Assembly: GCA_000004985.1 (NCBI GenBank) | Contig: GG738924.1 | Reading direction: 5' to 3' (one strand) | Source of the DNA: Naegleria gruberi | Lineage: Eukaryota | DNA: 64,000 nt | Shown here: piece after piece, positions 2,176 through 46,034 of the stretch | Layout: every line of letters starts with the position of its first letter | Numbering within the stretch: position 1 is the stretch's first letter | Made by a program: the position numbers and the translations under genes | The notes under the pieces: generated by a model | Told to the model about the DNA's origin: nothing | Database searches by the model: none | What the model saw: only the letters and a program-made list of their open reading frames with translations

Positions 2176-2254
2176 GAATTGTAAAGTTTTTGGCAGCTAT
2201 TGTAGTAGTTCTAACCTGAATTGTAAAGTTTTTGGCAGCTATTGTAGTAGTTCA
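2176..2254 (+). repeat. Tandem duplication of a 35-bp unit at the left junction of the retroelement
   Basis: aattgtaaagtttttggcagctattgtagtagtt occurs twice, at 2176-2210 and 2220-2254, separated by ctaacctg. It lies immediately before the point where homology to the inverted gag copy begins. Confidence 0.6.
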
Positions 2255-2684
2255 AACACCAAGCAAAGCGAATATCTCCAACATTCGTCAAAGAGTTTCA
2301 GCAAGCAAATCTTCAACTTCTACCTACAAGTCAGGTTACATCCCAGTAACTGACAATGGTAGCTCAGCTTCACTCCCCTCTGTGGTTGACCCAACAAGCA
2401 AAACCTTGGATAACAATCAAGCTGGTTCTGAAAAGAACCTTGATGCTATTTTCAACGCCATCACTTCTTTGGGTGAGAGAATAAAGCATCTCGAAGCTGT
2501 TCCTCCTGTTCTGCAACAAGCTAATCAACTTGATGAAGACCCTGATGAGGAATCCGCTGATGAGGATTTCACTGGTAAACATTGGGGTCTAACTACTATC
2601 AAGGAGATTAGACGTAACTACGAAGTTGGTGATAGACTATCTGTTATAGGCGATAAAAACTCGCACGAAGACCCAGGCAGTTAA
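2232..2684 (+). pseudogene. gag-like ORF1, N-terminal half, interrupted after ...NYEVGDRLS by a nested insertion
   Basis: It is 97% identical at the protein level to residues 15-160 of the intact minus-strand gag at 6911..7978. The reading frame leaves the gag sequence at nt 2642 and resumes at 4064. Confidence 0.5.
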
Positions 2685-4063
2685 ATTCGTTGGTATGAAC
2701 CTTCCAGGCGAAAAATACTTCTAGGATAGATTCCATTAAAATTATCCATCCCTAAAAGTCTGCTATATCAGGGATGGAATTAGGCCTTGCACAAATAGAA
2801 TCCAATTAGACAACACTTATCTGTTAAGGTAGGAATTATCATTAATATGATAAGTCTCATTAAACAAGCTCTATTAGCATGAATTTAGAGCCATTATGTG
2901 TAATATCTTGTTTTATGAACCTATTCAATATCTACTAGGATTTTATGAATTATCAAGTATTAAAGAAGTATATTTAATTGGTAAATAATCACAGATTAGT
3001 TTTTAAAAATTTAAAATCTCCAATTCAATGAATTTAACACAATAAATTAATGTGTGATACAAAAGTACAATGAAATTTATTATTTTGATGTTTTGACATG
3101 GTGAACATCTGGTTAGGCTGAGAACTTGCATGTTTAGAGAGAAATTTAAGATCTTTATGATCTCATCGAAATAAAACGAAATATTTGATATGGTACATCT
3201 ACAATAATACTAATAACAGTTTATTAATGTTTCAAGAAGTTTGGCTATGTACTTTTGGCATGAATCATGATATGTTATCATGAATATTCCGAAGTTGGTA
3301 AAACAACAAAATGATGAAAAACTGATAATAAATATATTGTTTATTATGTATTTGAATAGTAGTTATGAAAGACATTTTCAAAGTTGGTGAAGTACATGTT
3401 GAGTTATGGTCCATGTACATGTTGAAAATATACATGAACCTATCATCATGATAACCAATAGGAAAATGTTCGGAAGTGATTTTACCTGATGGAATCGACC
3501 ATGCTGAACAATACTAGATGAAAGTTTTCCAAATTACCATATGAATCTGGCAGTGATGATGATTTTAGTGAAAATATTGAATTTCACTAAAATATTACTA
3601 TTATCAGATTTATTTCCACAAATATTACTATTATAATGATGATAAATAACAATGATGATGGTTGGAAGTTGTTCCGATGATGGTTTACCAACTTGAATTT
3701 TTCCCAAGTGAAAATTAAATTCCAAATTTATAATCACAATCCAATAATAAAAAATACTACCAGTAATACTATTAGGATGATGTTGAGATGATGATGTGAA
3801 AGTTTGGTGGATTCATGGGGTGAAATCACTCTGAAAATCACCAAAGTGTTCCCAATGTGTGTTTGGGCTGAAATATTTTTTCTTAATGGTGGAAAATAAT
3901 GGAACGTGTATTTGTTCGGTGTTATTAATACATACAAGGCAACACCAAGAACTTTTGTCCATCAAATAAGCACCTTACTATTTTCGCATAGACATTTTAG
4001 GCTATTTTTTTTGGCCTATATATTTTTTGCCTGTTTTTCAGGCGAAAAAAGTAGCCTAGAACA
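2642..4063. mobile_element. Nested 1.42-kb non-autonomous TIR element (MITE-like) inside gag
   Basis: An intact gag is available for comparison at 7540-7560 (reverse complement). Against it, the insertion is flanked by a duplicated TATC (2638-2641 and 4064-4067). Its termini are TGTTATAGGC...GCCTAGAACA, imperfect 10-bp inverted repeats. Subterminal CAGGCGAAAAA motifs occur near both ends. The interior is AT-rich and non-coding, with (ATG)n-like tracts at about 3590-3700. Confidence 0.5.
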
Positions 4064-4131
4064 TATCCGATGGAGATGTCTTAAGTTTTGTCTCAGCCAA
4101 AACACTTCGTCATTACTCTTCCAATGAGGCG

Positions 4132-4698
4132 TTGTTGAGTAGAGTTCAAGTTTTGATGGCTCGATTTGAATCTGTCATTCACAACTCTCGTAACTATCCT
4201 CGTCTGCAAGAAATTCAATCCAAAGGCTTGCAAAAGATGATGGAAATGTTACATTTGAAGTCTAAATTACTTCAGTTTGCTCTGAGCCATCCATTAAATG
4301 TAACCAACATCATTGAAATCACTGAGTTGGTGTTTCTCCTCTCTGAGGTTGAGAAAATCTTTTTAGAAGAAGGTTTGTTCGAAAGTAACTTTGATGTTGC
4401 GAACCAATTTATTCAACCCTTCATCCAAAGCAACACGTTTGCTGATATAACAGAAAAAGCTCGTCAAAAGAAGAGAGAGAAGTCTATAGTAAAACATGCC
4501 ATCACCAGCAAGATCCAAAAACCTCTAAAGATGAAAGAAAAGTTTCAAAAACCGTCCTCTCATCAAGGTGGCATCCCTAACAGCTATTCAAAGCCATTCA
4601 ACAATTACAACAAGAGTGGTTCCTCTTTTCAAAAGTCAGGAGATTCCAAGCCAAAGTACAATAACAATGGTGGAGGATCTTTCAAACAAGACCTCTGA
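4132..4698 (+). CDS. gag-like ORF1, C-terminal part, resuming after the nested insertion
   Basis: Collinear with the C-terminal 190 aa of the intact gag copy (...RVQVLMARFESVIHNSRNYPRLQEIQSKG...GGGSFKQDL). It ends at TGA 4696-4698. The next ORF (4708..6687) continues in the same frame. Confidence 0.55.
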   Translation: MLSRVQVLMARFESVIHNSRNYPRLQEIQSKGLQKMMEMLHLKSKLLQFALSHPLNVTNIIEITELVFLLSEVEKIFLEEGLFESNFDVANQFIQPFIQSNTFADITEKARQKKREKSIVKHAITSKIQKPLKMKEKFQKPSSHQGGIPNSYSKPFNNYNKSGSSFQKSGDSKPKYNNNGGGSFKQDL

Positions 4699-6553
4699 CT
4701 TGGTAGGTTGCCGTCTCAACAAGTTTGTACCTCAGTGGGAGAGTTACAACTTCAACCCATTTATAGTGGATTGGATTCGAAATGGAGTCCCAATCTACTC
4801 AAATCCCACCCTTTGGAAAGAATTCAAACAAAGGAAGAATTTCTCTCCAAAGGAAACCTCTTGGATGGATCAGGAAATCCAAGATATGCTGAGTTCCAAT
4901 GTAATAGAGATTGGAAACAGTTCAACAATATTGAACCCAATAAACATTGTACCCAAGAAGGGTTCGGATCAATTTCGCTTTATTCTAGACCTAAGGAAGG
5001 TCAATTTAGGAATAAAGGACAGTTCCTTCAAGATGGACAACATTCAAAGATGTTTGAAATTTGTTCAGAAGGGAATGTGGGCAACAAAGATAGACCTGAA
5101 GAAGGGTTACTTCCACGTTCCAATCAGGGAGAAACATCGCAATCTTCTTGGATTCCGGTACAAGGACAAGATTTATCAGTTCAAATGCCTACCGTTTGGG
5201 CTAAGTCAAGCTCCCAGAAATTTCACAAAGATTATGAAAGAGTTGGTGACCAAGTGGAGAAAGAAGGGTATTCTAGTATTTATTTACATAGACGATATTT
5301 TGATTCTAAGCAACAGCAAAGAAACTACCCAACTGCTCACAGACATAGTCATGAAGGATCTGGAGACATTGGGATGGATAATCCAGAAAGAGAAAAGCGT
5401 ATTAGCACCGTGTCAACACATAGAGTTTCTCGGTCTGGAACTGGATCTCGTACTTGGCCTTGTGAAAATCCCAGTCAACAAACAATCAACAGCCTTAGAA
5501 ATGATTCAAAAATTCTTATCAGCAAACCAACGGAACAGGTTTGTAGCATGCAAGAAAGTAGCACAATTCCTCGGAAAGATGGAATTTCTAACTCTTTCAA
5601 ACCACTACTTTGCTCCCTTTCTTGCTCGTCTTCGGAAGGATATGGTGAAAGTAGTAAACGACAAATCTTGGCACGCATCAATGAGAATATTCAGAGGTGC
5701 AGCGAAGGATCTAAATATTTTGAAAGATCTGATTCAGGAAAACAGTGGAATTCCCTTCGAACTGAATTCAATGAACCCAATTCGAGTGAATTCAGATGCC
5801 TGCCCAACAGGCTATGGAATTCACGCAGAGTCAACCATTACAATTGGAAGATTCACTTCCTCAGAACACATCAATGTGAAAGAGTTAAAAACACTCCTCA
5901 TTTTCTTCACACAAGCAGATCGGTTAAACCTTTATGGTCCTGGACAAGCATTCGAAATCAGAGGCGACAATGTTACAGCAATTTCCTATATAAGGAGAGG
6001 TTACGGAGTCATAGAAGAACTCTCTCAAATTGCCAGAGACCTCTACAAGATCTTGATGAGAAGAAAATGGTGGATTTCAAAGGTGATTTACATTCCCTCA
6101 AAGGAGAACAATCTAGCAGACAGACTGAGTCGCTTAACAGAATGGAAATCATCTCAAGAACTACTGCATCTAGTTCAGACAGAATTTGGAGAACACCATG
6201 TGGACAGGTTCGCGACATCGGAATCAACCACAACAATTCAATTCAACTCATGGATAGAGAACGACACATTCTTGAATCCATGGGAACAAAATCTGATGAG
6301 TTATTGTGTTCCTCCTCTGGGTCTGATATCTCAAGCTCTAGTTCATTGCATAAAATCAGAAGCGAAAGCGACATTTGTAGTTCCAGACTGGCCCTCTTCG
6401 ATATGGTTTCCAGTCTTGCTAAAGATATCAGAAAGGATAATACCTGTTTCCCGAAAGATGCTTATAATAACGCCCTTGTCAGAGTTGCAAGACAAGTTCG
6501 AGACTTCCAATTTCCTGGTTGTTCAAGTGCATGGCAAGTTGTTCAAGCAATAA
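4568..6553 (+). CDS. Reverse transcriptase / RNase H polyprotein, DIRS type
   Basis: 661-aa ORF in frame 2, overlapping the gag end by 130 nt. It has RT blocks including YIDDIL, and RNase H motifs DACPTGYG...DNVTAISY...IPSKENNLADRLSR. Confidence 0.8.
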   Translation: MASLTAIQSHSTITTRVVPLFKSQEIPSQSTITMVEDLSNKTSDLVGCRLNKFVPQWESYNFNPFIVDWIRNGVPIYSNPTLWKEFKQRKNFSPKETSWMDQEIQDMLSSNVIEIGNSSTILNPINIVPKKGSDQFRFILDLRKVNLGIKDSSFKMDNIQRCLKFVQKGMWATKIDLKKGYFHVPIREKHRNLLGFRYKDKIYQFKCLPFGLSQAPRNFTKIMKELVTKWRKKGILVFIYIDDILILSNSKETTQLLTDIVMKDLETLGWIIQKEKSVLAPCQHIEFLGLELDLVLGLVKIPVNKQSTALEMIQKFLSANQRNRFVACKKVAQFLGKMEFLTLSNHYFAPFLARLRKDMVKVVNDKSWHASMRIFRGAAKDLNILKDLIQENSGIPFELNSMNPIRVNSDACPTGYGIHAESTITIGRFTSSEHINVKELKTLLIFFTQADRLNLYGPGQAFEIRGDNVTAISYIRRGYGVIEELSQIARDLYKILMRRKWWISKVIYIPSKENNLADRLSRLTEWKSSQELLHLVQTEFGEHHVDRFATSESTTTIQFNSWIENDTFLNPWEQNLMSYCVPPLGLISQALVHCIKSEAKATFVVPDWPSSIWFPVLLKISERIIPVSRKMLIITPLSELQDKFETSNFLVVQVHGKLFKQ

Positions 6554-6687
6554 GGGATCTTAGTATCCTTTCATCAATAGCTGAGAAAACATTCAGAACT
6601 TATAATAGAATTTATGGTGGTTTTCTCTGGTTTATCAATGTGTTTGATCTCACCATTGATGATCCTATAGCTATTGAATATTGTTGA
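4708..6687 (+). CDS. 659-codon ORF overlapping the RT ORF in another frame, the same frame as gag (candidate second pol-region ORF)
   Basis: There are no stops for about 2 kb although the region is AT-rich, which is very unlikely by chance. It starts 3 codons after the gag TGA, in the gag frame. Its first 76 codons are also present in the inverted partial copy (6671..6901, minus). DIRS-type elements are known to carry overlapping ORFs. I could not identify catalytic recombinase motifs by eye. Confidence 0.4.
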   Translation: MPSQQVCTSVGELQLQPIYSGLDSKWSPNLLKSHPLERIQTKEEFLSKGNLLDGSGNPRYAEFQCNRDWKQFNNIEPNKHCTQEGFGSISLYSRPKEGQFRNKGQFLQDGQHSKMFEICSEGNVGNKDRPEEGLLPRSNQGETSQSSWIPVQGQDLSVQMPTVWAKSSSQKFHKDYERVGDQVEKEGYSSIYLHRRYFDSKQQQRNYPTAHRHSHEGSGDIGMDNPEREKRISTVSTHRVSRSGTGSRTWPCENPSQQTINSLRNDSKILISKPTEQVCSMQESSTIPRKDGISNSFKPLLCSLSCSSSEGYGESSKRQILARINENIQRCSEGSKYFERSDSGKQWNSLRTEFNEPNSSEFRCLPNRLWNSRRVNHYNWKIHFLRTHQCERVKNTPHFLHTSRSVKPLWSWTSIRNQRRQCYSNFLYKERLRSHRRTLSNCQRPLQDLDEKKMVDFKGDLHSLKGEQSSRQTESLNRMEIISRTTASSSDRIWRTPCGQVRDIGINHNNSIQLMDRERHILESMGTKSDELLCSSSGSDISSSSSLHKIRSESDICSSRLALFDMVSSLAKDIRKDNTCFPKDAYNNALVRVARQVRDFQFPGCSSAWQVVQAIRDLSILSSIAEKTFRTYNRIYGGFLWFINVFDLTIDDPIAIEYC

Positions 6688-7041
6688 ACTGTTTCCAATC
6701 TCTATTACATTGGAACTCAGCATATCTTGGATTTCCTGATCCATCCAAGAGGTTTCCTTTGGAGAGAAATTCTTCCTTTGTTTGAATTCTTTCCAAAGGG
6801 TGGGATTTGAGTAGATTGGGACTCCATTTCGAATCCAATCCACTATAAATGGGTTGAAGTTGTAACTCTCCCACTGAGGTACAAACTTGTTGAGACGGCA
6901 ACCTACCAAGTCAGAGGTCTTGTTTGAAAGATCCTCCACCATTGTTATTGTACTTTGGCTTGGAATCTCCTGACTTTTGAAAAGAGGAACCACTCTTGTT
7001 GTAATTGTTGAATGGCTTTGAATAGCTGTTAGGGATGCCAC
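6574..7041 (-). pseudogene. Truncated N-terminal fragment of the RT ORF in the inverted copy
   Basis: Its first 120 aa are identical to the start of the 4568..6553 ORF (MASLTAIQSHSTITTRVVPLFKSQEIPSQ...NSST). It then diverges at the copy junction. Confidence 0.5.
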
Positions 7042-7940
7042 CTTGATGAGAGGACGGTTTTTGAAACTTTTCTTTCATCTTTAGAGGTTTTTGGATCTTG
7101 CTGGTAATGGCATGCTTTACTACAGACTTCTCTCTCTTCTTTTGACGAGCTTTTTCTGTTATATCAGCAAACGTGTTGCTTTGGATGAAGGGTTGAATAA
7201 ATTGGTTCGCAACATCAAAGTTACTTTCGAATAAACCTTCTTCTAAAAAGATTTTCTCAACCTCAGAGAGGAGAAACACCAACTCAGTGATTTCAATGAT
7301 GTTGGTTACATTTAATGGATGGCTCAGAGCAAACTGAAGTAATTTAGACTTCAAATGTAACATTTCCATCATCTTTTGCAAGCCTTTGGATTGAATTTCT
7401 TGCAGACGAGGATAGTTACGAGAGTTGTGAATGACAGATTCAAATCGAGCCATCAAAACTTGAACTCTATTCAACAACGCCTCATTGGAAGAGTAATGAC
7501 GAAGTGTTTTGGCTGAGACAAAACTTAAGACATCTCCATCGGATAGTCTATCACCAACTTCGTAGTTACGTCTAATCTCCTTGATAGTAGTTAGACCCCA
7601 ATGTTTACCAGTGAAATCCTCATCAGCGGATTCCTCATCAGGGTCTTCATCAAGTTGATTAGCTTGTTGCAGAACAGGAGGAACAGCTTCGAGATGCTTT
7701 ATTCTCTCACCCAAAGAAGTGATGGCGTTGAGAATAGCATCAAGGTTCTTTTCAGAACCAGCTTGGTTGTTATCCAAGGTTTTGGATGTTGGGTCAACCA
7801 CAGAGGGGAGTGAAGCTGAGCTACCATTGTCAGTTACTGGGATGTAACCTGACTTGTAGGTAGAAGTTGAAGATTTGCTTGCTGAAACTCTTTGACGAAT
7901 GTTGGAAATATTCGCCTTGCTTGGTGTTTGAACCATTTCA
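6678..7940 (-). mobile_element. Inverted, 3'-truncated second copy of the DIRS-like element (5' region + gag + first ~280 nt of pol), head-to-head with the long copy
   Basis: The reverse complement of 6680-7940 is collinear with 2257-2641 plus 4064-4933 of the long copy. It has no nested insertion. The two arms meet at about 6677/6690. The copy's own upstream region 7941-8274 runs to the (AT)n at 8275. Confidence 0.7.
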
Positions 7941-7978
7941 ATATACTTAATTTTTTTGAGCATAAAATTATTTATCAA
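6911..7978 (-). CDS. Intact gag-like ORF1 of the inverted copy (355 aa)
   Basis: MVQTPSKANISNIRQRVSAS...GGGSFKQDL* is uninterrupted here. In the + copy the same protein is split into 2232..2684 and 4132..4698. Confidence 0.65.
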   Translation of the reverse strand: MINNFMLKKIKYIEMVQTPSKANISNIRQRVSASKSSTSTYKSGYIPVTDNGSSASLPSVVDPTSKTLDNNQAGSEKNLDAILNAITSLGERIKHLEAVPPVLQQANQLDEDPDEESADEDFTGKHWGLTTIKEIRRNYEVGDRLSDGDVLSFVSAKTLRHYSSNEALLNRVQVLMARFESVIHNSRNYPRLQEIQSKGLQKMMEMLHLKSKLLQFALSHPLNVTNIIEITELVFLLSEVEKIFLEEGLFESNFDVANQFIQPFIQSNTFADITEKARQKKREKSVVKHAITSKIQKPLKMKEKFQKPSSHQGGIPNSYSKPFNNYNKSGSSFQKSGDSKPKYNNNGGGSFKQDL

Positions 7979-8271
7979 CTCAATTTTATTGTTTACAATT
8001 TGTCGTAATACTAACGTTGCATCGTTCCTCGCAACTCTACATTGGAAGTAATAATCTTTATGGTAAATCCAAAGAAAATAAATTCAAAGAAAAAACAAAC
8101 TTTGTAAAAATATTACAAAAACACTGTTATTAGAAGTAGTAAAAGTAGAGTTATGATAGTTGTTTATTAAAACAAAGAAAAACTCTTACAACAAGAAATA
8201 GACAACTAGATTCATGGAGGTTGATGGAGTAGTTTAAAAATAAATGGAACAACTAATATCTAACATCAATT

Positions 8272-8274
<3 letters not shown>

Positions 8275-8310
<36 letters not shown>
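8275..8310. repeat. (AT)18 microsatellite
   Basis: Perfect AT run. It is the mirror partner of the (AT)15 at 687..716. Confidence 0.9.
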
Positions 8311-8312
<2 letters not shown>

Positions 8313-8335
8313 CAAATATCATCATTTGACTACTT

Positions 8336-9214
8336 TCAGCTTTTATTGTTAAAAACATAAATAAATTTCCGGTGTTTATTACAACTAGGTAAAACTGAAA
8401 CGGTACTACTAAGATTATCGTATCTAGTGGGGAACTTATGAAAATTAGGGGTTCTGCTGGCCCATTTGCTGACTTTTTCAATGGTTTCTACTGCTTTTAC
8501 TTTTTCAGCAGATTTAATGGCCTTCTCTTGTTGTTTGGAGGTGATTTGGTCAAGTGAACCTCCTGATTTGTAGCTGTTAGAGAAGTTTTCAGCTGCTTCA
8601 AAGCCATTTTTAATGCCCATTCGAATACAGACTAGATTTAACTCAGAAATATTCTGAATAAATTCAAATCCTTGAAGAATAAGCGGTAAATCAAGGGTAT
8701 CACTCTCTCTCAAACGCTTGCAGATTTGAGAGATGATAAAAGAGTTTGTTAAAAGTAAAGAATAACCTTTACTTTTAATATCTTTTATACCAGATGAATC
8801 TGGAATGGGAGTGTCTACTTCTTTTCTGAACAACAATTCAAGAGCAGCCATTCTATTCTTGAATTCCAAGTTGTCAGCGTATGGAGCATTGGCTGTTTCG
8901 AATAGAAGAGAAACAGCTTCTTCCAACGGCAAATCTTCTTTCAATGACTCACCAAACATTCTTTGGTAAGAGTTGATGACGTGGTTTTTAAACCAATCAT
9001 CTGGTTCATCAGCAACTCTTGCTCTTTTACCAGAAACCTCTTCAGATGGGTTGGACTCAAACAATTCCATCGAAGAAGCGAGAGCAGAAGCACCTTGTGA
9101 ACCAACCTTGGCGGAAGGAGTTAGAACAATGACTCGTTGCTCGCTACCTGCAGAAGGTGAGCTAAGGTCTTTCGTTTTCTTGTTGTTCTTTGGTGTAGTT
9201 GGTGTTGGGGCCAT
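8336..9214 (-). CDS. Hypothetical protein (292 aa)
   Basis: Single ORF with an acidic, S/P-rich N-terminus and a helical C-terminus. Its last 35 codons are duplicated in inverted orientation at 575-690. The motif CATGCTCAAAAAATTATCACA lies immediately upstream of the ATG. Confidence 0.5.
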   Translation of the reverse strand: MAPTPTTPKNNKKTKDLSSPSAGSEQRVIVLTPSAKVGSQGASALASSMELFESNPSEEVSGKRARVADEPDDWFKNHVINSYQRMFGESLKEDLPLEEAVSLLFETANAPYADNLEFKNRMAALELLFRKEVDTPIPDSSGIKDIKSKGYSLLLTNSFIISQICKRLRESDTLDLPLILQGFEFIQNISELNLVCIRMGIKNGFEAAENFSNSYKSGGSLDQITSKQQEKAIKSAEKVKAVETIEKVSKWASRTPNFHKFPTRYDNLSSTVSVLPSCNKHRKFIYVFNNKS

Positions 9215-11734: not shown

Positions 11735-12282
11735 ATGATTTTATACATTACGTTTTGAATCATTAAAACATTCGCGTACTTTGACTCTCAAACAATGTTT
11801 CAAGAAAGCTTATCAACTAGCTTTACAGATTATAGGAAACACTGGTATGTGTTTTGAAGAATAATATCTGATTGAAATAATCCTCTTTTTCTAAAGTAGT
11901 TGATTCTAGTGTTTTCTTCCAAACAATTGTCCGCCAATTAACATTTACTCAAACTGGAATCTTTTAAGGTTTTTCCAAAATACTCTTAATAAAATTAACA
12001 TCTATTTCAATGGTGGACTTGCGTTTCAGAAAAAATATGAAATTGACACACAAAAAGTTTGTGAGTGAAGGTAGTGTCGATCTACCACCTTAGATTCAAC
12101 GGTGAGCGTCTATGTTCTCCCAATTAAACTATTCACCCACAAATTTATCTATTAAACACACAGATCAAGATATGATAATAAGCACTTCCAAAAATAGATT
12201 TGGTTTTGGTTTTGATTAATTTTAAATATAACTTATTGAATTTGACGCTCTATTCAGAATAGAGTTTAGTCAGTGGATTGTT

Positions 12283-13500
12283 TGAAATATGAGTTGATAT
12301 TTGAAAAGTAAATTAGTAAATTGAATCAGTGAAGGTTTCATTAGGGGAAATCAGATTTCCATCCAAATTTGGAACCTTACATCTAACTTTTTGAGTTTGT
12401 TCCAAATGAAAAACTATTCGAAATGGTTTAAATTAGCACCATGTGTTTGAACTTTACTATCCAACAAAAAAAAATGAAAACAAATCTAATCTTTTCAATT
12501 GCAATTCTACTTTTACTTGCAATCCTCTCAGTTCAAGCAAGTGACAGCTATCAAACTAAACCTCCAGTTGTTGACAAGTATCACAAGCCAAGAATTTGTA
12601 AGAGAAAATGTTTAAAGCACAAGTGGATTAAGAAGTGTTTGAAACACAAACTCGTCGGTCAAAAGAAGGTCTGTGATCAATATGCAATTGTCGGTGCTGG
12701 CAAATGTCTCAAACATAAGAAATATTCTAAATGTGACAAGTACAGTAAGGCAACAAAGAAGTGTGTCTTGCATGCATACAAGATTGTTGGATGTGCCAAG
12801 AAGAAGTATTGGAAAGTTTGTGATTCTTATGGAACTAAGAAGATTTGTATCAAGAAGGGTTACAAGAAATTCTGTGCCAAACACAAGATTATCAACAAGT
12901 GCGTCAAGAAGGGATATAAGAAGGTCTGTAAGAAATTCAAGAAGGTTCCAATCAAGAAGTGTGAAAAGAAGAAGATTTGCGACAAGTATACTGTTGATTC
13001 CTATAATAAGAAGGTTGCCAAATGTAGATATGTTAAAAAGTGCAAGATTGTTTCATGGGCAAAGAAATGCGCCAAGTATAAGAAGGTTAAATACTGTAAG
13101 GAGAGAAAATCCATTAAGAAGTGTTGTCTCATTAAGAAGAAATTCTTCTGTGCCAAACATAAGACTATCAAGTTCTGTAAACACAAGAAGACTATTTCCA
13201 AATGTGTGAAATATAACAAGAAGAAGTATTGTGCCAAGTCAATTGTCATTCCACCAAGATGTATCAAGAAGAAGTATTATAAGAAGTGTTTGAAACGTTC
13301 AAAGGGAAAGAAGATTTGTAAGAAATTCAAATTAGTTGGTGGAAAGAAAAAGTGTTGCAAGTCAATCAAGAAGAAGATTTGTATCAAGAGAAAGACATGC
13401 AAAAAGTCATCAAAGCCAATCGTTAAACCATCCTTGTAAATTAATGGCATTTGCTAATACACTCTTAGTAATACGTGAGAAATATTAATAACAAAATAAA
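12283..13500. repeat. Arm A of a 1.2-kb inverted segmental duplication (partner at 55430..56650)
   Basis: The reverse complement of 55430-56650 matches this interval at about 97%. The match includes about 160 bp upstream and about 60 bp downstream of the K/C-rich CDS. Confidence 0.8.
12441..13439 (+). CDS. Secreted polybasic cysteine-repeat protein (332 aa; about 35% Lys, about 15% Cys), copy A
   Basis: N-terminal signal peptide MKTNLIFSIAILLLLAILSVQA. The mature part is tandem KKCxKxKK-type modules with Cys about every 8 residues. Several alternative-frame ORFs from the track (12612..12884, 12673..13209, 13001..13267) are artefacts of this repetitive AAG-rich sequence. Confidence 0.7.
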   Translation: MCLNFTIQQKKMKTNLIFSIAILLLLAILSVQASDSYQTKPPVVDKYHKPRICKRKCLKHKWIKKCLKHKLVGQKKVCDQYAIVGAGKCLKHKKYSKCDKYSKATKKCVLHAYKIVGCAKKKYWKVCDSYGTKKICIKKGYKKFCAKHKIINKCVKKGYKKVCKKFKKVPIKKCEKKKICDKYTVDSYNKKVAKCRYVKKCKIVSWAKKCAKYKKVKYCKERKSIKKCCLIKKKFFCAKHKTIKFCKHKKTISKCVKYNKKKYCAKSIVIPPRCIKKKYYKKCLKRSKGKKICKKFKLVGGKKKCCKSIKKKICIKRKTCKKSSKPIVKPSL

Positions 13501-13520
13501 TTAAACTATTTCACTACAGT

Positions 13521-28108: not shown

Positions 28109-29661
28109 CTAATAAAATTGTCTAGTCTTGTTGTTCAATTCTAACCATTCCTTATACCAAGAACGATCAGGAAACACTTTCTTATTATCCTCAATAGCTT
28201 GTCTATGTTTATGACAATCAGAAATTTCATGATCTGAAGCTGGCACAGTTCCATTCTTAGTTAAAACATTCAAAGTTTTGGTGAATCCTTTAAATAGTAA
28301 TTTTGCTCTCTTTTTCCAAAATATTTCAGATAATAAATTAGTTTGGAATGGTAAATCAAAATTAGTATAGGTCACGTGAACTAATCTTGTAAATCTATCA
28401 GAAAGTCTGTAGAATAGATAGTAGCTCAGTGAATCTGCCTTGACGTGTCCTTGAGATGGCATTTCTTCTTCTGAGAAATCAGCAGTGTGTAATAGATGAA
28501 ATAAGAGATCAGTTTCTTGGATGGTGGTTGCTACAGATGACAGTTGTCGTTTTTTGACAAGTGGTAGAGATAGGTCAATACCGATTGAAAGACATTGAGT
28601 AGCATAGGAAGAATTAATTCCTTCTGAACCCAAGCCATTCAATCCACTAGGAGGTCTATAATCATGCAATTCGAAACCTTTCGTCTGAGGATCAAACGAA
28701 TTATGATTGTCAGCATCAAATAACATTGTTGACACATCTTCCAATGAAAATGGCAGATACATTACAGCTTTCAACAACTTCATTCCCTTCGATTCTCCAA
28801 AAAAGTAAGTACTGTTCGAAGAGTAACAATATAAATCTTCCCTTTCGTATATTAATTTCCAATCTGGCGTGTCTTGGGCAAGTGTGAAACCAAAGTAAAT
28901 GTGATTGTCGGTAATTAGTTGTTCTTTCAAGTCTTTTGGTTTAAATCTCAAATCGACATTGTATCCTTTGGAAATATCGTATCCAATTGATCTGGTGAAG
29001 GTTTCACCTTTGAGTTTCAGAAAGTTTCGTAATTTTTCTGAACGAACAAATCTTGGAAATTGGTCCATCTTTAAATCTAGTGAACAGATGACATAACTTT
29101 TGAGAATAAAGCATCAGGATGTAATTTTTTCATTATTGCACTTTCTAATTGCTCCAACGAAAGTTGACTATCAGAAGCAACACAAAATGAAAGTCTAGAA
29201 CTACTCTGACTACCACCTGTCAAAGTAATAAACGTATCAAGCAAATCCTCTTTAGCCAGTTTCCAATAATTCAACAGCCAACTCTGACTAGTTCCAATAT
29301 TCAACTCTTTTTCACTATGATATTCAATAAATGTTTGAATAATCTTCTCCACTCGTAAAATAACCTCATTTCTGAACAAATTCTTGTTTTGTTTGGAAGA
29401 ATTTGATGAATTCTTGAGTGAAACCTTTTCTTCATCTGCCCAGCCACCAAAAACCTCCTTCAGCACCTGTTCATACCCACTGAAATACTCAGCATAGGTA
29501 TCGAGGAAAAGTAGAGGTTCTTCATTTCTACAATCTTGAAGAAAGTCTTGAAAGATCTTTCTTGCTTCCTTGTTATCGAGAACTGCTTCATAGTCGATAA
29601 AGTAATTGGAGGGATCGAAGTGGGCTTGTGATGACATTTTTTTGTAGGTGCCATAAAACAA
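28109..29661 (-). pseudogene. Disrupted tandem paralog of the RGS-domain gene at 29772..31337
   Basis: ORF 29077..29661 is paralogous to the N-terminal RGS half, and ORF 28109..29068 to the C-terminal half. At the junction the intact copy reads ...SSVHLDLKMDQFPRF. This copy has a 1-bp deletion plus a substitution that creates TAG after SSVH and shifts the frame. Confidence 0.5.
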
Positions 29662-29771: not shown

Positions 29772-31337
29772 TTAATGCTTTAATTCTGTCCATTCGCTGT
29801 ACCACGAACGATTAGGGAAAGCCTTCTTGTTGTCCAACATGGCTTGAATGTGTTTGTGGTTGTCCTGGACTTGAATTCTTTCATGATTAGTGGCATGTAG
29901 TGTTCTGTTTTTGGTAGTAGTATTGAGCGTCTTGTTGAATCCTTTAAACAGTGCTTTGGATCTCTTTTTCCAAAATATTTTGTATAACAGATCGGTTTGA
30001 AATGGTAAATCAAAGCTACTGTAAGTTACATGTACCACTCTGGTAAGATTGTCAGCAATTCTATTGAATAAATAGTAGCTCAGTGAAGCTGCTTTCTTGA
30101 CACGAGGTGATATTGGCATTTCCTCTTCTGGAAAATCAGCAGTATGTAAAACATGTAGTAAGAGATCAGATTCTTGAATGGTGGTTGCAACAGCACATAA
30201 CTGTCGTTTTTTGATAAGTGGCAGAGAAAGATCAACACTAATAGAAAGGCATTGTGTGGCGTATGTTGATTTACTACCCTCGCTGTAATTGTTCAATCCA
30301 CTTGGTGGTCTATAGCTTTGGAGTTTGAATCCATCTTTAGTTTGAGGATCGAATGAGGTATGGTTATCTGTATTGGAAATCATTATAATAAAGTCTTCAA
30401 GTGAAAAAGGGAGATACATAATGGCTTTCAATAGCTTCATTCCCTTCGATTCTCCAAAAAAGTAGGTTGTGTTAGATGAGTAACAACATAGATCCTTTCT
30501 CCCATAAATCAACTTCCAATCGGGCGTATCCTCTGCCAATGTGAAACCAAAATAAATGTGCTTGTCTGTAATGATCTGATCTTTTAAATCTTTTGGTTTA
30601 AATCTCATATCAGCATAATATGCTGCGGAGATGTCGTATCCAATTGATCTGGTAAAGGTTTCGCCTTTGAGTTTAAGGAAATTCAGTAGCTTTTCTGAAC
30701 GGACGAACCTTGGGAATTGGTCCATCTTTAAATCTAAATGTACAGATGACAGTACTTTTGAAAACAAAGCTTCAGGATGTAATCTTCTCATAATTTCACT
30801 TTCTATCTGTTCAGTAACCAGATTATAGTAATCAGAGGAGGTACATGACAGTCTTGTTTTACCTGGTACAGTTGAATCCAGAAACACATCAATGAGGTCT
30901 TCCTTTACATCTTTCCAATAGTTTAATACTATTGTTTGACTCGTTCCAATATTCAACTCTCGTTCACTATAATGTTCTAAGAATGTATTAATAATACTTT
31001 CTGCTCTTCCAATTACTTCAACTCTGAATAAATGATTGTGTTGCTTGGAGGAATTAGATGATTGCTTCAATGAAATTATTTGATAATCTGACCAACCTCC
31101 AAAAACTTCCTTTAAAACATGTTCATAATTGTGGCAGTATTCATTATAATGGTCAAGGAAAACTAGTGGTTCTTCATCTCTATTTTCAATTAAGAATTCA
31201 TGGAATATTCTTCTTGCTTCCTTGTTATCGAGGACGGCATCATAATCAATACAGTAATTTGTAGGATCAAAGTGTTGTGACATTTTTTGTTTGGTGAGAT
31301 AAGACATAACAGTTTGACCAAAGAATAAGAATGACAC
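29772..31337 (-). CDS. RGS-domain protein (521 aa) with an uncharacterised C-terminal domain
   Basis: The N-terminal region FHEFLIENRDEEPLVFLDHYNEY ... YSERELNIGTSQT matches the two conserved RGS blocks in the right order and spacing. RGS4 has [22 protein letters not shown] and ATKEVNLDSCTRE. The C-terminal 300 aa are unassigned. Confidence 0.55.
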   Translation of the reverse strand: MSFLFFGQTVMSYLTKQKMSQHFDPTNYCIDYDAVLDNKEARRIFHEFLIENRDEEPLVFLDHYNEYCHNYEHVLKEVFGGWSDYQIISLKQSSNSSKQHNHLFRVEVIGRAESIINTFLEHYSERELNIGTSQTIVLNYWKDVKEDLIDVFLDSTVPGKTRLSCTSSDYYNLVTEQIESEIMRRLHPEALFSKVLSSVHLDLKMDQFPRFVRSEKLLNFLKLKGETFTRSIGYDISAAYYADMRFKPKDLKDQIITDKHIYFGFTLAEDTPDWKLIYGRKDLCCYSSNTTYFFGESKGMKLLKAIMYLPFSLEDFIIMISNTDNHTSFDPQTKDGFKLQSYRPPSGLNNYSEGSKSTYATQCLSISVDLSLPLIKKRQLCAVATTIQESDLLLHVLHTADFPEEEMPISPRVKKAASLSYYLFNRIADNLTRVVHVTYSSFDLPFQTDLLYKIFWKKRSKALFKGFNKTLNTTTKNRTLHATNHERIQVQDNHKHIQAMLDNKKAFPNRSWYSEWTELKH

Positions 31338-36772: not shown

Positions 36773-36834
36773 TAAATTAATAGAAAATAATTGGTTCATT
36801 GCAGCAAGATTCTAAGGTTATTAAGGAAAACACT

Positions 36835-36925
36835 GGTGAGATGGTCGAGTGGTCTAAGACGACACGTTAAGGTATGATTAATACCGTGTTCCGCAAGGGC
36901 GTGGGTTCAAATCCCACTCTCATCA
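36835..36925 (+). tRNA. tRNA-Leu (anticodon AAG) with an 11-nt intron
   Basis: Class II tRNA. Acceptor GGTGAGA/TCTCATC, D arm GTCGAGTGGTCTAAGAC, anticodon stem-loop ACACG-TTAAGG-[ATGATTAATAC]-CGTGT, long variable arm TCCGCAAGGGC, T arm GTGGGTTCAAATCCCAC. TTAAGG at -14..-9. TTTT terminator. Confidence 0.65.
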
Positions 36926-37001
36926 AATTTTGCTTTAGGAATTGATTGGAAACTAATAAGGCTCTTGATATTTAATTAAATTTCGTTAATTAAGGCAAGA
37001 A

Positions 37002-37007
37002 GGGGTT

Positions 37008-37038
<31 letters not shown>

Positions 37039-37074
37039 TGCAGAAGGTCTAGGGTTCGATTCCCTATGACTCCA
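37002..37074 (+). tRNA. tRNA-Ala (anticodon UGC), copy 1
   Basis: GGGGTTATAGCTCAGTTGGTAGAGCGTCTGCTTTGCATGCAGAAGGTCTAGGGTTCGATTCCCTATGACTCCA with the G3:U70 Ala identity pair. TTAAGG at -12..-7. TTTT terminator after CCAA. Confidence 0.9.
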
Positions 37075-37496
37075 ATTTTACCCCATTCGTTGTTTTTATT
37101 GGCCAAATATGTATTATTATATTACTTATCGATTTCATACCCAATACTCTATTATTTCGATGGTTTGAGTGTCAAATCCAACCACTATGAATACTGAGAG
37201 TTGATCTTGGAGTTTTTGGAATTGTTGGAGATGACAACCTTGAACTTTTAAAAAGAAGTGAAAAGACTTGATATTGAAATATAAACATTGAATAGTTTAT
37301 TAACCACTTTTAGATTGTTATGAATTCAAAGTCAATCTATCGCTCATTTTTTTGTATACAAACATTGTAAACTCTGATTTCGATTACTTTCAACAATGAG
37401 TAATTATATTATTAGAAACGTGATTACTAAAAACAATTCAAAAAGCACGTTTCAGAAATTCCCAACAAGAAACAACTTTAAAACAAACAATTCTAA

Positions 37497-37859
37497 ATGG
37501 CAATCACCAGAATCACAGAAATTTGGGTCGTTTCCTACACTATCCAACACAGAAAAACAGAAGTTTCATCCTGTTGCGTTCTAATCCTCTGGATCATCCT
37601 TACATGCATTTCCATTCAAGCAATCTACACTGCATGCGATCAAATTCAAAACAATCCTAAAGATAAAACATTTGGTGATCCAGTTACTGCTATAATCATC
37701 TGGTCAGGGATCTTGGCAATGTTGACATGTTGTTGCTGTTCATGTTGTTGTGGGGTGGTTTGGAAATGTATTAGAAATCCAGTTTCTAATAATTTGCGTA
37801 AAAATAATGGTATGGATGAGAATGCCAACAGTGGATATTATCAGAGTGCTGAATGTTGA
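37497..37859 (+). CDS. Small cysteine-rich membrane protein (candidate ORF)
   Basis: Two hydrophobic helices with a CCCCSCCCG palmitoylation-like cluster. The start and exon structure are uncertain. A second small ORF at 37396..37584 overlaps it in another frame. Confidence 0.3.
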   Translation: MAITRITEIWVVSYTIQHRKTEVSSCCVLILWIILTCISIQAIYTACDQIQNNPKDKTFGDPVTAIIIWSGILAMLTCCCCSCCCGVVWKCIRNPVSNNLRKNNGMDENANSGYYQSAEC

Positions 37860-38308
37860 AGAGGGAAGTTTCGAATGAAAATTGTAAATATACTGTATTC
37901 CAAAAACTAATAAATAAAATTCTAATAAAATAGATCAATTCATAACTGAGGAGTGTTCTACTCATTGGCGAATATTACAAGTTTCCACAATGAAAGAATA
38001 AAAGTTCTTAAAACTAAAAACTTTGCCAAAAATAAATTATAAATTGTTAATATTTCTTCATTCTCATCAAATACTTTTTCAAGATGATCCTCCTTATCAG
38101 CTTTGGAATTTCCTTTAATGAGAGGAAGAACAACTGTTTTCAATGAAGCCGTTCCAGAAATTTTTTGGTTGATGGGCACTCAATATGATCTAATGGTAAC
38201 ATGTATTGTTTTGGAGCATTTTTCTTTCTTTTAGTATTCTACTTGCAATACTTGCAAGAAGACTAAGGCTATAAATGAACTCATTTATAAATCCTAATTA
38301 AGGAAAGA

Positions 38309-38315
38309 AGGGGTT

Positions 38316-38346
<31 letters not shown>

Positions 38347-38381
38347 TGCAGAAGGTCTAGGGTTCGATTCCCTATGACTCC
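38309..38381 (+). tRNA. tRNA-Ala (anticodon UGC), copy 2
   Basis: Identical to the 73-nt copy 1. Shares the upstream ATTAAGGMAAGAA and the downstream CCAATTTT flank. Confidence 0.9.
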
Positions 38382-38514
38382 AATTTTGGTCCCATTAGTT
38401 ATTTTTTATTGAGGCATGCAAGAAGAACATATGGGAAGCGTAATTGGATTGTGGGCTGATTTCACAATCTTAAAAAATCCACAACACAACTGACTCAACA
38501 CTTCACAGGATACA

Positions 38515-39243
38515 ATGAATGGATCTCTCATCAGTAACACCCAGACAATAAAATCCTCCTCTCAATACGCAACACCAAAGAAGATATCCAAAGACACTGA
38601 AGTAAAATGTGAGTTACTGTTTTTATTACCAAATCTTATTCAATGATCTTCTTTTCGGTATTCAATCGTTATTATCTTTGTTCATCACACTTCTAAATTA
38701 CTATTATGAACAGTCTGTAAAGGATACATGAACAAGTTGGGAGCCATTGATACTTGTACAGCAAATATTGGAGGAAATATCATGGTTAGGCAAATTCAGA
38801 AACATCACACTCTCAATCTGATGGCTGTGACAAAAACCGTCGATACTTCTCCGCCTTGGTCATATAGACAGCATCAGTCACCCAAAACCAATACCATTCA
38901 GCAAGTAAATATGATGAGAGCCTCCTTAAATACTACAAGTCCACTAGCAAAGCAAAAATCGTCTAGCAATTTTGAAAAGCTGGATTTAAAGTAGGTTTTC
39001 CAATTGAATCTTATCTCATACTGTTATTTATTGATCAATAGTAAGGAAAATATGATTGATATTGAACAGGAGTTGGACGAACATGATCAGATCATTTACA
39101 AAAACTTTATGGAAATGTTGTCAAAGAGAAAATGTTTTGCAGATGCTCAAATATTGGCAACAATTGCATTGGGAAAGGTTGAAGAAGAATGGGCAGAAAA
39201 ACAACAAATTCCACCATCACAACATGAAGAAATAAATTCGTAA
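38515..39243 (+). CDS. Lineage-specific protein P1, 3 exons, 190 aa, downstream of tRNA-Ala copy 2
   Basis: Exons 38515..38608, 38714..38990, 39042..39243. Intron 1 is 105 nt (GTGAGT...AACAG), intron 2 is 51 nt (GTAGGT...AATAG). The product is MNGSLISNTQ...FCKGYMNKLGAIDTCTANIGGNIMVRQIQKHH...KLDLNKENMIDIEQELDEHDQIIYKNFMEMLSKRKCFADAQILATIALG... It is a paralog of P2. The ORF track shows only fragments. Confidence 0.55.
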
Positions 39244-39295
39244 ACTCTAAGATGGTTAATGCATATATTGATCGATTTTAATATTAAGGCAAGAA

Positions 39296-39301
39296 GGGGT
39301 T

Positions 39302-39332
<31 letters not shown>

Positions 39333-39368
39333 TGCAGAAGGTCTAGGGTTCGATTCCCTATGACTCCA
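39296..39368 (+). tRNA. tRNA-Ala (anticodon UGC), copy 3
   Basis: Identical 73-nt sequence. Upstream ATTAAGGCAAGAA. TTTTTTT terminator. Confidence 0.9.
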
Positions 39369-39645
39369 ATTTTTTTGTTCCGTGAGTACACTCGAATTGT
39401 ATTCTTAATTAACTCTCTTATTCTGAAATAACATTTCAACAATGGTAATGCTTTCTACGTCAATCCAAGGCATTGAGATTTTGTTAAAAGAGAGACGCGA
39501 ACAGTTGATTTAATGGTAATAATCGATTCAGTGGAGAAAGACATTCCAAACATAACGGAAAAAGTTTACGATTTTGTAGTTGGTAGTTTTAAGGGCAACA
39601 ACGATAAAACAGGAGATAGAGAAAATAAAATACAAATAGAAACAA

Positions 39646-43694: not shown

Positions 43695-44534
43695 TTACAC
43701 CTTTGCTCCATAGTACTCACTGCTCAACCTTTCTTGATAAAATTCTTCTGAAAATTCAAGGTAGAAACCATTTGATCTTACAGCTTCTAACTGGACTTGC
43801 TTGTTCATTTTCAAGATAAAAGGAAGATATTTCAAAGCTAGACCATTCTGTTGTACTGCCATCATTGCTAGCTCTTCTGAAATCAAGTTGTCTTCAATAT
43901 TGCAAACCACCAAACCATTGGTAGAGATCGCCTCTCTGATGAAACTTTCGTCATACTGGTGAGGATTGTTCCAAAAAGTTGCATTATTATATTTGATCAG
44001 TTCCAAATACATGTATCTATCTTCCCAACATGAAAATTCTGGAATAAAAAAGTTAATACGTCCACCTTTAGCAGCATACAAAACAATTTCCTTATCCAAT
44101 CTCAAGTTAAGTGAAAGACATTTGTAATTATGTGGATTCGTTTTCATAATGTGGAGTGCTAACTCTCTATCATTTCGTAAATCGCTCGACAAATAATCAA
44201 CAATAAAACATTGTTCATCCATTTTCTGCTCACAAAGTTCAAATATGAAATCTCTCTCGCTCAATATCGTATTTCTGGTGGAATGGAATTGTTCTGGAAG
44301 CTTTTCCAACATGGAAGGTTTTTTCAAGAGTGCAATTTTGAGAATTTCATCATCCATATAGTTAGCATAATGAACAGAATAGGGATTATGTTTAACTGCC
44401 TCTAATATAACCTCCCTGTCACATTTCAATAGATCTGATGCATATCTAAGGCATGATTGACCAGACACTAGTGGTTTATCGCATCTTACAGCCAGTAAAA
44501 CTATTTCTCTATCATTTTTCATTTCTCCACTCAA
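43695..44534 (-). CDS. DUF4116-repeat protein, 3' portion (279 aa)
   Basis: Repeated units of the type NDREIVLLAVR...L.Y.S..LK.DREVILEAVKHN. Its first 72 codons are about 99% identical at the nucleotide level to the last 72 codons before the assembly gap in the 46035..47055 ORF. Confidence 0.5.
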   Translation of the reverse strand: MSGEMKNDREIVLLAVRCDKPLVSGQSCLRYASDLLKCDREVILEAVKHNPYSVHYANYMDDEILKIALLKKPSMLEKLPEQFHSTRNTILSERDFIFELCEQKMDEQCFIVDYLSSDLRNDRELALHIMKTNPHNYKCLSLNLRLDKEIVLYAAKGGRINFFIPEFSCWEDRYMYLELIKYNNATFWNNPHQYDESFIREAISTNGLVVCNIEDNLISEELAMMAVQQNGLALKYLPFILKMNKQVQLEAVRSNGFYLEFSEEFYQERLSSEYYGAKV

Positions 44535-45984
44535 ATATTGAGGTCATTCAAAAATTAAGTGTTTTTCAACACAAGCAATACACAAATTTTTTTAGTGGTA
44601 ATTGGATTCATTTTTGTTTGTGTTGTGTGTTTGTGTTTTGGCCATTAAAATTACACATACAATACATATTTTTATTCATCGATATCCATGAGATCTGCGA
44701 GAATTAATTTAGTCTTCACTGCGTATTGGGTATTCGTTTAAATAAATATTCGTTAAAATTGCACAAACCAACACAATTACTGGTTGACAACTAATGGAAT
44801 GCCTAAAAAGTTTTGCTAATATTTGAAATCGCTTTAGAAATGCATTTGTGATTTCAATTATAACTCTTTCATATTTCTGTTCATAATTTAGGTAAGATCC
44901 ATCACTCATAGGTTCAATCAGTTTTCCAGGAATTGAGTTGACCGAAAATCCACTGTCAACATTAACTTTGAATTTTGGATTCTTTTGTACTGCTTTATGA
45001 AGTCCAGATAATTTTAAAACAGTGTTATCATTCATTGAACCTCTAAAACCAATACTAATATGTGCTATTATTCCTGTTCTGTAAGTGGTAATTTGTGTGA
45101 TTAGGTCATGTCTTTTATCTTTTCGGTAATTTAAATGTTGAAGATAATTTGTTCTTGAATGTTTGAAGTGTGTAAATAAAGATTTATATCCTTTAAAGCA
45201 GGTTCCAAGGTTGATTCACCATATGGTGTCTCAATCCTTGAGCTTTTAATCCATTTGTCTTAATTTATTATTTTATTATTTTGTGGTTTTAAAAACATGT
45301 GTTAGATTAGTATTTAACAAAGGATGAGTTAATAAATTATCATCATGTAATTTGATAGTTTGACTTGTTATGTTAGTAGCAATATTAGTTAAAATATGAG
45401 GCAAATCAATACTTAATGTTGATAAACTAATACCAAACATTAAACTAATCCAAGTATTAGCAACACCACCCTTTAAATACATTAAAGCAGCTAATAATCA
45501 ATCTTCATTACTTAAAAGTCTTCTTTCTTTCTGTTATTAAATGATTTATGCTTTGATTAATTTAAATTGTGATATTGTTACTCCTGTCAAAGATAAGAAC
45601 AATCCTTTATCTTATTGAAGAACGGAAGTATTGATTCTTTGTATTCTATTTGTTGAAAATCAATGTGAATCTATTAAACCTTCTTTTTGTAGTGTAAATA
45701 GGATCAAATATTAAAGGAGGTGGAATATTAATTAAGTTTAAAATATTATATATTAATTCAAGTTCAGAATTACTGCAACTTGTTATTAGTAATTGTTCTT
45801 TTATAATTAGTAATAGTTTGTTTTGTTTTTGAGAAGATGAAGAATAATTTCTTCCGATAATGGTGTACCATTAATTGGAGGAGGATTTAAAATATCTTGT
45901 GTAACATTTAACAAGTCCTCCAGTATTTGTTGTGTCGAAGGTGATGGTAGTTGTGTCATTTTTTTTCCATTTAGATTTTTTAAT

Positions 45985-46034
45985 NNNNNNNNNNNNNNNN
46001 NNNNNNNNNNNNNNNNNNNNNNNNNNNNNNNNNN
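45985..46034. other. Assembly gap (50 N)
   Basis: Run of N in the sequence. ORF 45807..46076 in the track is translated through it and is an artefact. Confidence 0.95.

Follow-up and report, generated by a model that had tools for sequence, protein, structure and literature searches.

A precisely delimited 1,422-bp insertion in the gag of a DIRS-like element of Naegleria gruberi, a candidate non-autonomous DNA transposon

Results

The insertion interrupts one of two inverted arms of a DIRS-like element

We analyzed a 64-kb window, by which we mean the whole stretch of 64,000 nucleotides taken from contig GG738924.1 of the Naegleria gruberi assembly. Five of its eight long ORFs are identical to NEG-M proteins, for example the V-ATPase subunit a EFC36897 and the folylpolyglutamate synthetase EFC36896. 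Near the beginning of the window lies a retroelement whose gag is interrupted by the insert that is the subject of this work. A preliminary description, made from the letters of the sequence, had called the host a retrotransposon with a gag; this is correct as far as it goes and can be refined to a DIRS-like element, as the ORF at positions 4568-6553 contains an RVT_1 domain (E 5e-25) and, after it, a Dam-like methyltransferase domain. The closest relatives of this RT ORF are four metagenomic RTs (P0001-P0004) with 52-57% identity, and a Naegleria lovaniensis protein shares 52% identity over 26% of the query. An earlier survey detected DIRS-like sequences in N. gruberi without settling whether they are DIRS1-like (PMC3266345). 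The features of the locus are listed in Table 1.

Self-comparison of the window revealed that the DIRS-like element is present as two inverted arms, which are 98-99% identical. To the left of the insert, positions 2240-2641 (+) match positions 7943-7542 (-) with 97.8% identity (9 of 402 positions differ), and to its right, positions 4064-4935 (+) match positions 7545-6674 (-) with 99.3% identity (6 of 872 positions differ). Positions 7542-7545 of the uninterrupted arm are covered by both matches, an overlap of four bases. In a side-by-side alignment, no difference from the uninterrupted copy is seen in the 42 nt to either side of the insert, and the 19-mer that represents the empty site, GATAGACTATCCGATGGAG, has its single occurrence in the window at 7534-7552 (-). 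These data bear out the proposal of the preliminary description that the insertion in the gag can be compared exactly with an intact copy.

TATC is found twice at the insert, once on either side, and once at the empty site, in agreement with the target-site duplication (TSD) claimed previously. Because the bases that precede the left and right TATC differ, as do the bases that follow them, the duplication is exactly 4 bp long. The insert is a genuine and precisely delimited transposition footprint nested in another transposable element. As a nested-transposon event in a DIRS gag, it is ordinary biology.

The comparison also bears on the age of the event. The identity of the insert flanks with the empty site, together with the small number of differences between the arms, indicates that the insertion most likely took place around or after the time at which the arms were duplicated. 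That the other arm once carried the insert and lost it by precise excision is less likely.

Table 1. Positions of the DIRS-like arms, the insert and its internal features in the 64-kb window
Feature	Position	Strand	Remarks
Interrupted arm of the DIRS-like element	2240-4935	+	gag split at 2641/4064, then start of RT ORF
TSD, left copy (TATC)	2638-2641	+	filled/empty-site comparison
Inserted element	2642-4063	.	1,422 bp, 29.7% G+C, non-coding
Left terminal inverted repeat TGTTATAGGC	2642-2651	+	contains TAGGC at position 6
Left subterminal CAGGC	2674-2678	+	33 nt from tip; mirrors right-end copy at 31 nt
Left subterminal motif CAGGCGAAAAA	2705-2715	+	motif scan of window
Internal core with matches in environmental contigs L001 and L002	3337-3844	-	~500 bp, 69-76% identity, no codon-position bias
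Right subterminal TAGGC/CAGGC cluster	3995-4061	+	both orientations; nested inverted repeats, outer stem 3995-4011 / 4045-4061
Hairpin TTTTTTGCCTG-TTTTT-CAGGCGAAAAAA	4023-4050	+	13 nt short of right tip; folding energy (DNA) -9.1 kcal/mol, z -5.1
Right terminal inverted repeat GCCTAGAACA	4054-4063	+	pairs with TGTTATAGGC, 9/10
TSD, right copy (TATC)	4064-4067	+	filled/empty-site comparison
Uninterrupted inverted arm	6674-7943	-	intact 355-aa gag ORF at 6911-7978 (-)
Single TATC, empty site of the inverted copy	7542-7545	-	filled/empty-site comparison

Since the tips of the insert carry GT and AG, an introner-like element that is spliced from the gag transcript could in principle be proposed. 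With the outermost GT (2643) and AG (4059) as splice sites, nine extra in-frame bases would be left behind, adding three residues to the protein (DRLS-NIS-DGD). Splicing at these sites would thus not give back the exact ORF, and GTTATA appears to be a poor 5' site. Judged from the sequence of the junctions, an introner-like origin appears extremely improbable.

The interior is AT-rich and non-coding

The interior had been described as AT-rich and non-coding. The insert contains 29.7% G+C compared with 33.8% for the 64-kb window, its ORFs do not exceed 73 aa, and it gave no credible Pfam match, all of which agrees with that description. Rfam and tRNA scans of the insert returned nothing above chance, and we noticed no tandem repeats of note. 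An exact look-up of 10 insert ORFs in protein records found none of them present. A concatenate of the six-frame ORFs had no match among 5.8 G proteins, a search in which the query was insensitive, as it also missed P0028, a metagenomic relative described below.

One minus-strand frame of the interior attracted attention, having only 6 stops in 324 codons, compared with 25-26 in the other two frames. A decayed gene was considered as the source of this pattern and rejected, because there is no Pfam match and the substitutions between three homologues are spread evenly over the codon positions (e.g. 0.38/0.34/0.32, no bias). The homologues repeat the same frame-wise pattern of stops, which fits runs rich in ATC and CAT and suggests that the low-stop frame is compositional. 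The description of the interior as non-coding thus holds.

Inverted repeats and mirrored subterminal motifs mark both ends

The 10-bp imperfect terminal inverted repeats (TIRs) noted earlier are readily recognized: the two ends are complementary at nine of ten positions, and the probability of nine or more matches is 1.1e-4 for the base composition of the insert and fixed boundaries. Further inward than 10 nt, the only similarity between the ends is a displaced 13-nt motif recovered by local alignment. Elsewhere in the window, the terminal 10-mer has only one-mismatch matches at the level of chance.

Subterminal motifs had likewise been mentioned, and we found CAGGCGAAAAA at both ends. In addition to the left copy, it occurs at 4039-4049 (+), and an inverted copy with one mismatch lies at 4023-4033 (-). 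These three are all the CAGGCGAAAAA-like sites of the 64-kb window, and each falls no more than 75 nt from an end of the insert. A shorter pattern, YAGGC/GCCTR, shows the same confinement. The window as a whole holds 0.61 copies per kb, from which ~0.13 copies would be expected in the outer 2 x 110 nt of the insert; we counted eight there, a roughly 60-fold excess, and two in the 1,202-nt insert interior. The inward-pointing YAGGC copies stand at positions 6, 33, and 64 from the left tip and at positions 6, 31, and 46 from the right tip. The first two sites of each end, at positions 6 and 31-33 from the tip, are therefore mirror images of each other.

The right end also carries YAGGC copies in the reverse orientation. 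They produce a hairpin at 4023-4050 that is nested within 3995-4061 and stands out in DNA folding (z -4.5 to -5.1). No comparable hairpin was found at the left end (DNA fold z +0.3).

A one-sided, GC-containing hairpin located a few nucleotides upstream of CTAG is also characteristic of the 3' terminus of Helitrons. In Helitrons, the hairpin stands ~10 nt upstream of the 3' end, and the distance to the right tip of the insert, 13 nt, agrees with this. The same junctions can be parsed, as a matter of arithmetic, as an insertion of 1,426 bp that lies between A and T (GACTA|TCCG) and has no duplication, with 5'-TC and a 3' subterminal hairpin followed by CTAG; the hairpin at 4023-4050 is strong (z -5.1), and CTAG follows it 5 nt later, at 4056-4059. 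The 3' end under the A|T parse, however, is ...AACATA and not CTRR, and the six extra bases after CTAG require special pleading. A Helitron-like insertion would also leave the 9/10 TIR (P 1e-4) and the mirrored arrays as unexplained coincidences, whereas the insert as we delimit it has TIRs and a 4-bp TSD that set it apart from a Helitron. We consider this parse of the junctions to be highly improbable.

The core of the insert belongs to a dispersed repeat family

BLASTN with a word size of 7 detected no second copy of the insert in the 64-kb window beyond chance. Using a 92-residue translation of the interior, HMMER retrieved two metagenomic "proteins" of very small size (P0028 and P0031), and a profile search with three homologous peptides returned the same two and no others. 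At the nucleotide level, the two environmental contigs that encode these proteins share an internal core with the insert. Contig L001 (3,528 bp, ENA ERZ929261) matches positions 3337-3797 with 68.7% identity (E 2e-39), and contig L002 (513 bp, ENA ERZ12289979) matches positions 3510-3844 with 76% identity (E 8e-60).

L001 is N. gruberi-like: over 119 aa, its 144-aa ORF shares 98% identity with NAEGRDRAFT_76785, a protein predicted on two NEG-M scaffolds, those carrying EFC35560 and EFC36324. In L001, the core is flanked by sequences that have no relation to the DIRS gag and that include a short RT fragment (RVT_1 E 0.14). This fragment contains a Q-GF-R-S-D motif, which we take to be typical of LINE-type RTs. 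The presence of core relatives in different flanking contexts indicates that the interior of the insert is a dispersed and diverged repeat and not unique sequence.

How far the similarity extends was assessed with a tile test. Homology was found for window positions ~3264-3863 (z 6-18, with one weak tile of z 1.6), the terminal 100 nt on the right gave a borderline z of 4, and the left 620 nt of the insert showed no homology. Neither terminus of the insert is recognizable in L001 or L002, the start of L002 is unlike the right end of the insert, and candidates for a TIR/TSD boundary in L001 were no better than chance. Exact patterns of either terminus, of the hairpin, and of a conserved core block had zero matches in JGI metagenome contigs, IMG/VR, and GTDB genomes. 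Among the relatives found, none bears a transposase or has the same termini, and a search of the literature found no description of N. gruberi elements with these tips. The diverged core relatives at other loci argue against a one-off rearrangement and are silent on the termini.

These observations also allowed us to weigh an origin that involves no DDE transposition at all, either as filler from double-strand-break repair or as circular DNA integrated by a site-specific recombinase via a TATC core. Integration of circular DNA through a short shared core has been proposed for Cryptons and DIRS elements. The host locus is itself a nest of DIRS-type elements, which use a tyrosine recombinase; the 4-bp junction repeat could represent a microhomology or a crossover core, and the window holds no second copy with the same termini. 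Several features speak against such an origin. The TIR and the symmetric motif arrays are placed exactly at the junctions, and the interior is part of a dispersed repeat family. Moreover, the target is unlike the tips of the element, whereas a recombinase site would require similarity, and the crossover regions used by tyrosine recombinases measure 6-8 bp. Overall, we regard repair filler or recombinase-mediated integration as very unlikely.

The ends resemble those of integrase-type transposons

A duplication of 4 bp is shared by several groups of transposable elements, Sola elements among them, and we compared the ends of the insert with those of named superfamilies. Both piggyBac and Kolobok elements have a 4-bp TSD like that of the insert, and both have been reported from Naegleria (PMC9587614, PMC6125883). 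They were rejected because they are specific for TTAA and have CC..GG or RR..YY tips, compared with TATC and TG..CA here.

Ginger1 and Ginger2 (TDD) are cut-and-paste elements with TGT... tips and TSDs of 4 bp in Ginger1 and 4-5 bp in Ginger2, as in the insert (PMC2836005). Ginger2 prefers AT-rich targets (PMC2836005), and its target RTATAY matches the insert target cTATCc at four of six positions. Ginger1 was rejected, as its TSD is specific for CCGG/CCGT (PMC2836005) and the target here is TATC. The TIRs of Ginger elements are 40-270 bp long, and Ginger2/TDD fails on this point, its TIRs of ~50-180 bp contrasting with 10 bp in the insert. With respect to the TGTNR pattern, the left tip (TGTTA) fits, whereas the right tip (TGTTC) departs from it.

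The IS481EU group, which includes Banshee and is found in Trichomonas and other parabasalids, is characterized by TNT..AYA / TG..CA termini, TIRs mostly shorter than 50 bp, TSDs of 4 bp in several families, and non-autonomous derivatives (PMC10045372). The insert agrees with this description on three points, namely the TGT...ACA tips, the 10-bp TIR, and the 4-bp TSD, an agreement of structure only. IS481EU elements have been described from parabasalids and also include 15/25-bp TSD classes (PMC10045372), whereas the insert is heterolobosean and known from a single copy without a transposase. As Ginger1, Ginger2, piggyBac, and Kolobok fail and the fit to IS481EU is structural only, the insert cannot be filed in a named superfamily. 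By analogy with the Ginger and IS481EU groups, it would nevertheless work like an integrase-type transposon.

Discussion

Our results show that a 1,422-bp segment entered the gag of one arm of a DIRS-like element and duplicated TATC. On balance, we think it probable that this segment is a non-autonomous, non-coding TIR transposon (class II, cut-and-paste) belonging to an N. gruberi family. The preliminary description had likewise called it a non-autonomous DNA transposon. The structural part of that claim, a delimited footprint with a TSD, TIRs, and subterminal repeats, is well founded; the class assignment is less secure, as TG...CA tips combined with a TSD of 3-6 bp are also the signature of an LTR. 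The inverted repeat of the insert is just 10 bp long, within the range seen at the tips of LTRs, and the relatives in L001 and L002 share the core alone.

Two options for the class of the element are therefore live, and the DNA transposon is the more likely of them. The other is a solo LTR: a Gypsy, BEL, or Copia-type element would have integrated in the DIRS gag, and subsequent LTR-LTR recombination would have left behind a 1.42-kb LTR. A Ty3/Gypsy solo LTR is like the insert in its TG...CA tips, short inverted repeat, 4-bp TSD, lack of coding capacity, and kilobase size. Together with a 4-bp duplication and an inverted repeat that is short and imperfect, tips of this kind form the canonical LTR signature, and the segment is wholly non-coding. 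A conserved core with an unalignable remainder, as observed in the comparison with L001 and L002, is common among diverged LTRs. Published data bear on both options. TSDs are 3-6 bp long in LTR retroelements and 6 bp long in Polintons; those of several IS481EU families measure ~4 bp (PMC10045372), and TG..CA tips are common to these groups (PMC10045372, PMC2836005). The TGTNR pattern is shared with Gypsy LTRs (PMC2836005), and Gypsy elements have been annotated in N. lovaniensis (PMC6125883).

The evidence that leads us to favor a DNA transposon comes above all from the ends, where the mirrored subterminal repeats are confined. Class II elements usually have their transposase-binding sites laid out in this way, whereas such arrays have no role in LTRs. 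As only the extreme tips of an LTR serve as integrase substrates, dense mirrored YAGGC arrays with a 60-fold enrichment in the outer 110 nt would be unexpected there. In addition, we could link no paired LTR, PBS/PPT, or gag-pol to the insert. The repeat table of N. lovaniensis, a sister species, also speaks for this reading, with DNA transposons that equal or outnumber the Gypsy fragments (PMC6125883). The DNA-transposon reading is further favored by the environmental relative, since no retroelement sequence adjoins the core in L001; internal sequence of an LTR element is absent there, and the sole RT-like piece on that contig is presumably LINE-like. Finally, a solo LTR requires an additional step, the LTR-LTR recombination, for which there was little time, as the arms are still 98-99% identical. 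For these reasons, we regard the solo LTR as the less probable reading and still a serious rival.

From the combination of TGT...ACA tips and a 4-bp stagger it is fairly safe to infer that a DDE enzyme of the retroviral-integrase group made the insertion, whichever of the two elements was its vehicle. On the DNA-transposon reading, a course of events can be proposed. The insert would have been mobilized in trans by such an enzyme, as in Ginger1/2, IS481EU, and IS3/IS481. The enzyme may bind the YAGGC-containing terminal site TGTTNTAGGC together with the repeated subterminal YAGGC and CAGGCGAAAAA sites, which are placed as mirror images at the two ends. It would pair these ends and expose a 3'-OH at each terminal ...CA. 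The 3'-OH ends would then be joined to the two target strands, 4 bp apart, at TATC in the DIRS-like gag ORF, and repair of the two 4-nt gaps would yield the duplicated TATC. In this scheme, the class of the enzyme, the binding role of the motifs, cut-and-paste as opposed to copy-out transposition, and the dependence on an autonomous partner are what we infer from the structure of the insert and by comparison with known elements.

We found no report of Ginger or IS481EU elements in Heterolobosea in the literature. More tentatively, the insert could be a member of an undescribed cut-and-paste lineage of Heterolobosea that is similar to Ginger and IS481EU in its TG..CA tips and 4-bp stagger and has unusual ends. 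What we call unusual in this end architecture is the combination of a 10-bp TIR, mirrored YAGGC arrays (putative binding sites), and a one-sided hairpin. If it exists, this lineage would extend the group of integrase-type transposases to Discoba.

The importance of one nested insertion is modest. The case illustrates that "TIR plus 4-bp TSD" does not by itself distinguish DNA transposons from solo LTRs. Naegleria genomes have a small and poorly classified repeat content. With the empty site as an internal control, the locus defines both the tips and the 4-bp stagger of a repeat family that is otherwise uncharacterized, and the insert could seed the annotation of this family, and of its enzyme, across the genus. 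Should a transposase of the Ginger or IS481EU type turn out to be the partner, the host range of integrase-related DNA transposons would widen.

Coding potential and relatives of the insert

The 1,422-bp insert in the gag gene of the DIRS-like element contains, between positions 3003 and 3974 on the minus strand, one frame with only 6 stops in 324 codons, compared with 25-26 in its sister frames; dinucleotide shuffling gave P ~0.0015 for this scarcity, a post hoc value. The same stop pattern was found in the homologous environmental contigs L001 and L002, and comparison of the insert with these homologues showed no codon-position bias. Together, these comparisons indicate that the stop-poor frame probably has a compositional cause.

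In L001, an N. gruberi-like contig, the repeat core, a counterpart of the ~500-bp internal core of the insert, is flanked by a reverse transcriptase (RT) fragment (1196-1390), which ends abruptly at ~1390, and by sequence of the NAEGRDRAFT_76785 type (2902-3338). Judged from its motif (…QRGFRRLASTTDQL…), the RT fragment looks LINE-like. NAEGRDRAFT_76785 is a two-copy "predicted protein"; the position of the repeat core between it and the RT fragment suggests that the gene model itself is located in repeated DNA.

Repeats and duplicated genes in the window

Repeated features are collected in the table. An odd tRNA-like sequence was also reported by ARAGORN at 36834-36926.

Repeats, duplicated genes, and an associated ORF in the window
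Feature	Position	Description
DIRS-like locus	2240-7943	inverted repeat, arms 1.27 kb
Second, older inverted pair	579-828 and 8163-8425	77% identical; outside the DIRS arms
ORF, 292 aa	8336-9214 (-)	without Pfam domain
1.24-kb inverted pair	12281-13515 and 55430-56664	96% identical; 42 kb apart
127-bp repeat	960-1086 and 45173-45299	inverted orientation; 97.6% identical
213-bp direct repeat	44327-44539 and 46035-46247	99% identical
tRNA-Ala(TGC) genes, n = 3	36987-39373	in ~115-bp repeats; spacing 1.0-1.3 kb
Paralogous genes in tandem	28134-29660 and 29779-31306	DNA identity 72%

Each copy of the 1.24-kb pair carries an ORF of 322-332 aa in which no Pfam domain was found, and no target-site duplication was seen at the edges of either copy. 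The 127-bp repeat, with no obvious target-site duplication, may be a small dispersed repeat. The 213-bp copies lie inside or adjoin two DUF4116 genes, and the second abuts a 50-N assembly gap (45985-46034); either a tandem gene duplication or an assembly artifact is therefore possible.

Architecture of the DIRS-like locus

With the insert removed, 2240-4935 pairs with 7943-6674, and both arms contain the entire gag together with ~120 codons from the start of the RT ORF. The 1.74 kb between them (4936-6673) is unique and consists of RT/RNase H/methyltransferase sequence. At 2240-7943, no ORF for a tyrosine recombinase was seen. The locus is either a rearranged tail-to-tail pair or a DIRS derivative with an unusually long ITR.

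A (TA)n tract lies within the older inverted pair, into which the 292-aa ORF extends with its 3' end. The spacer between this pair and the DIRS arm measures ~1.4 kb on the left (829-2239) but 220 bp on the right (7944-8162), and this inequality suggests that a further indel or insertion may have occurred there. A collinear alignment of the ORF to the DIRS gag spans 254 aa at 22% identity (E 0.079); judged from it, the ORF may encode the gag of a second DIRS-like element that has diverged. If so, the locus would be a nest of transposable elements.
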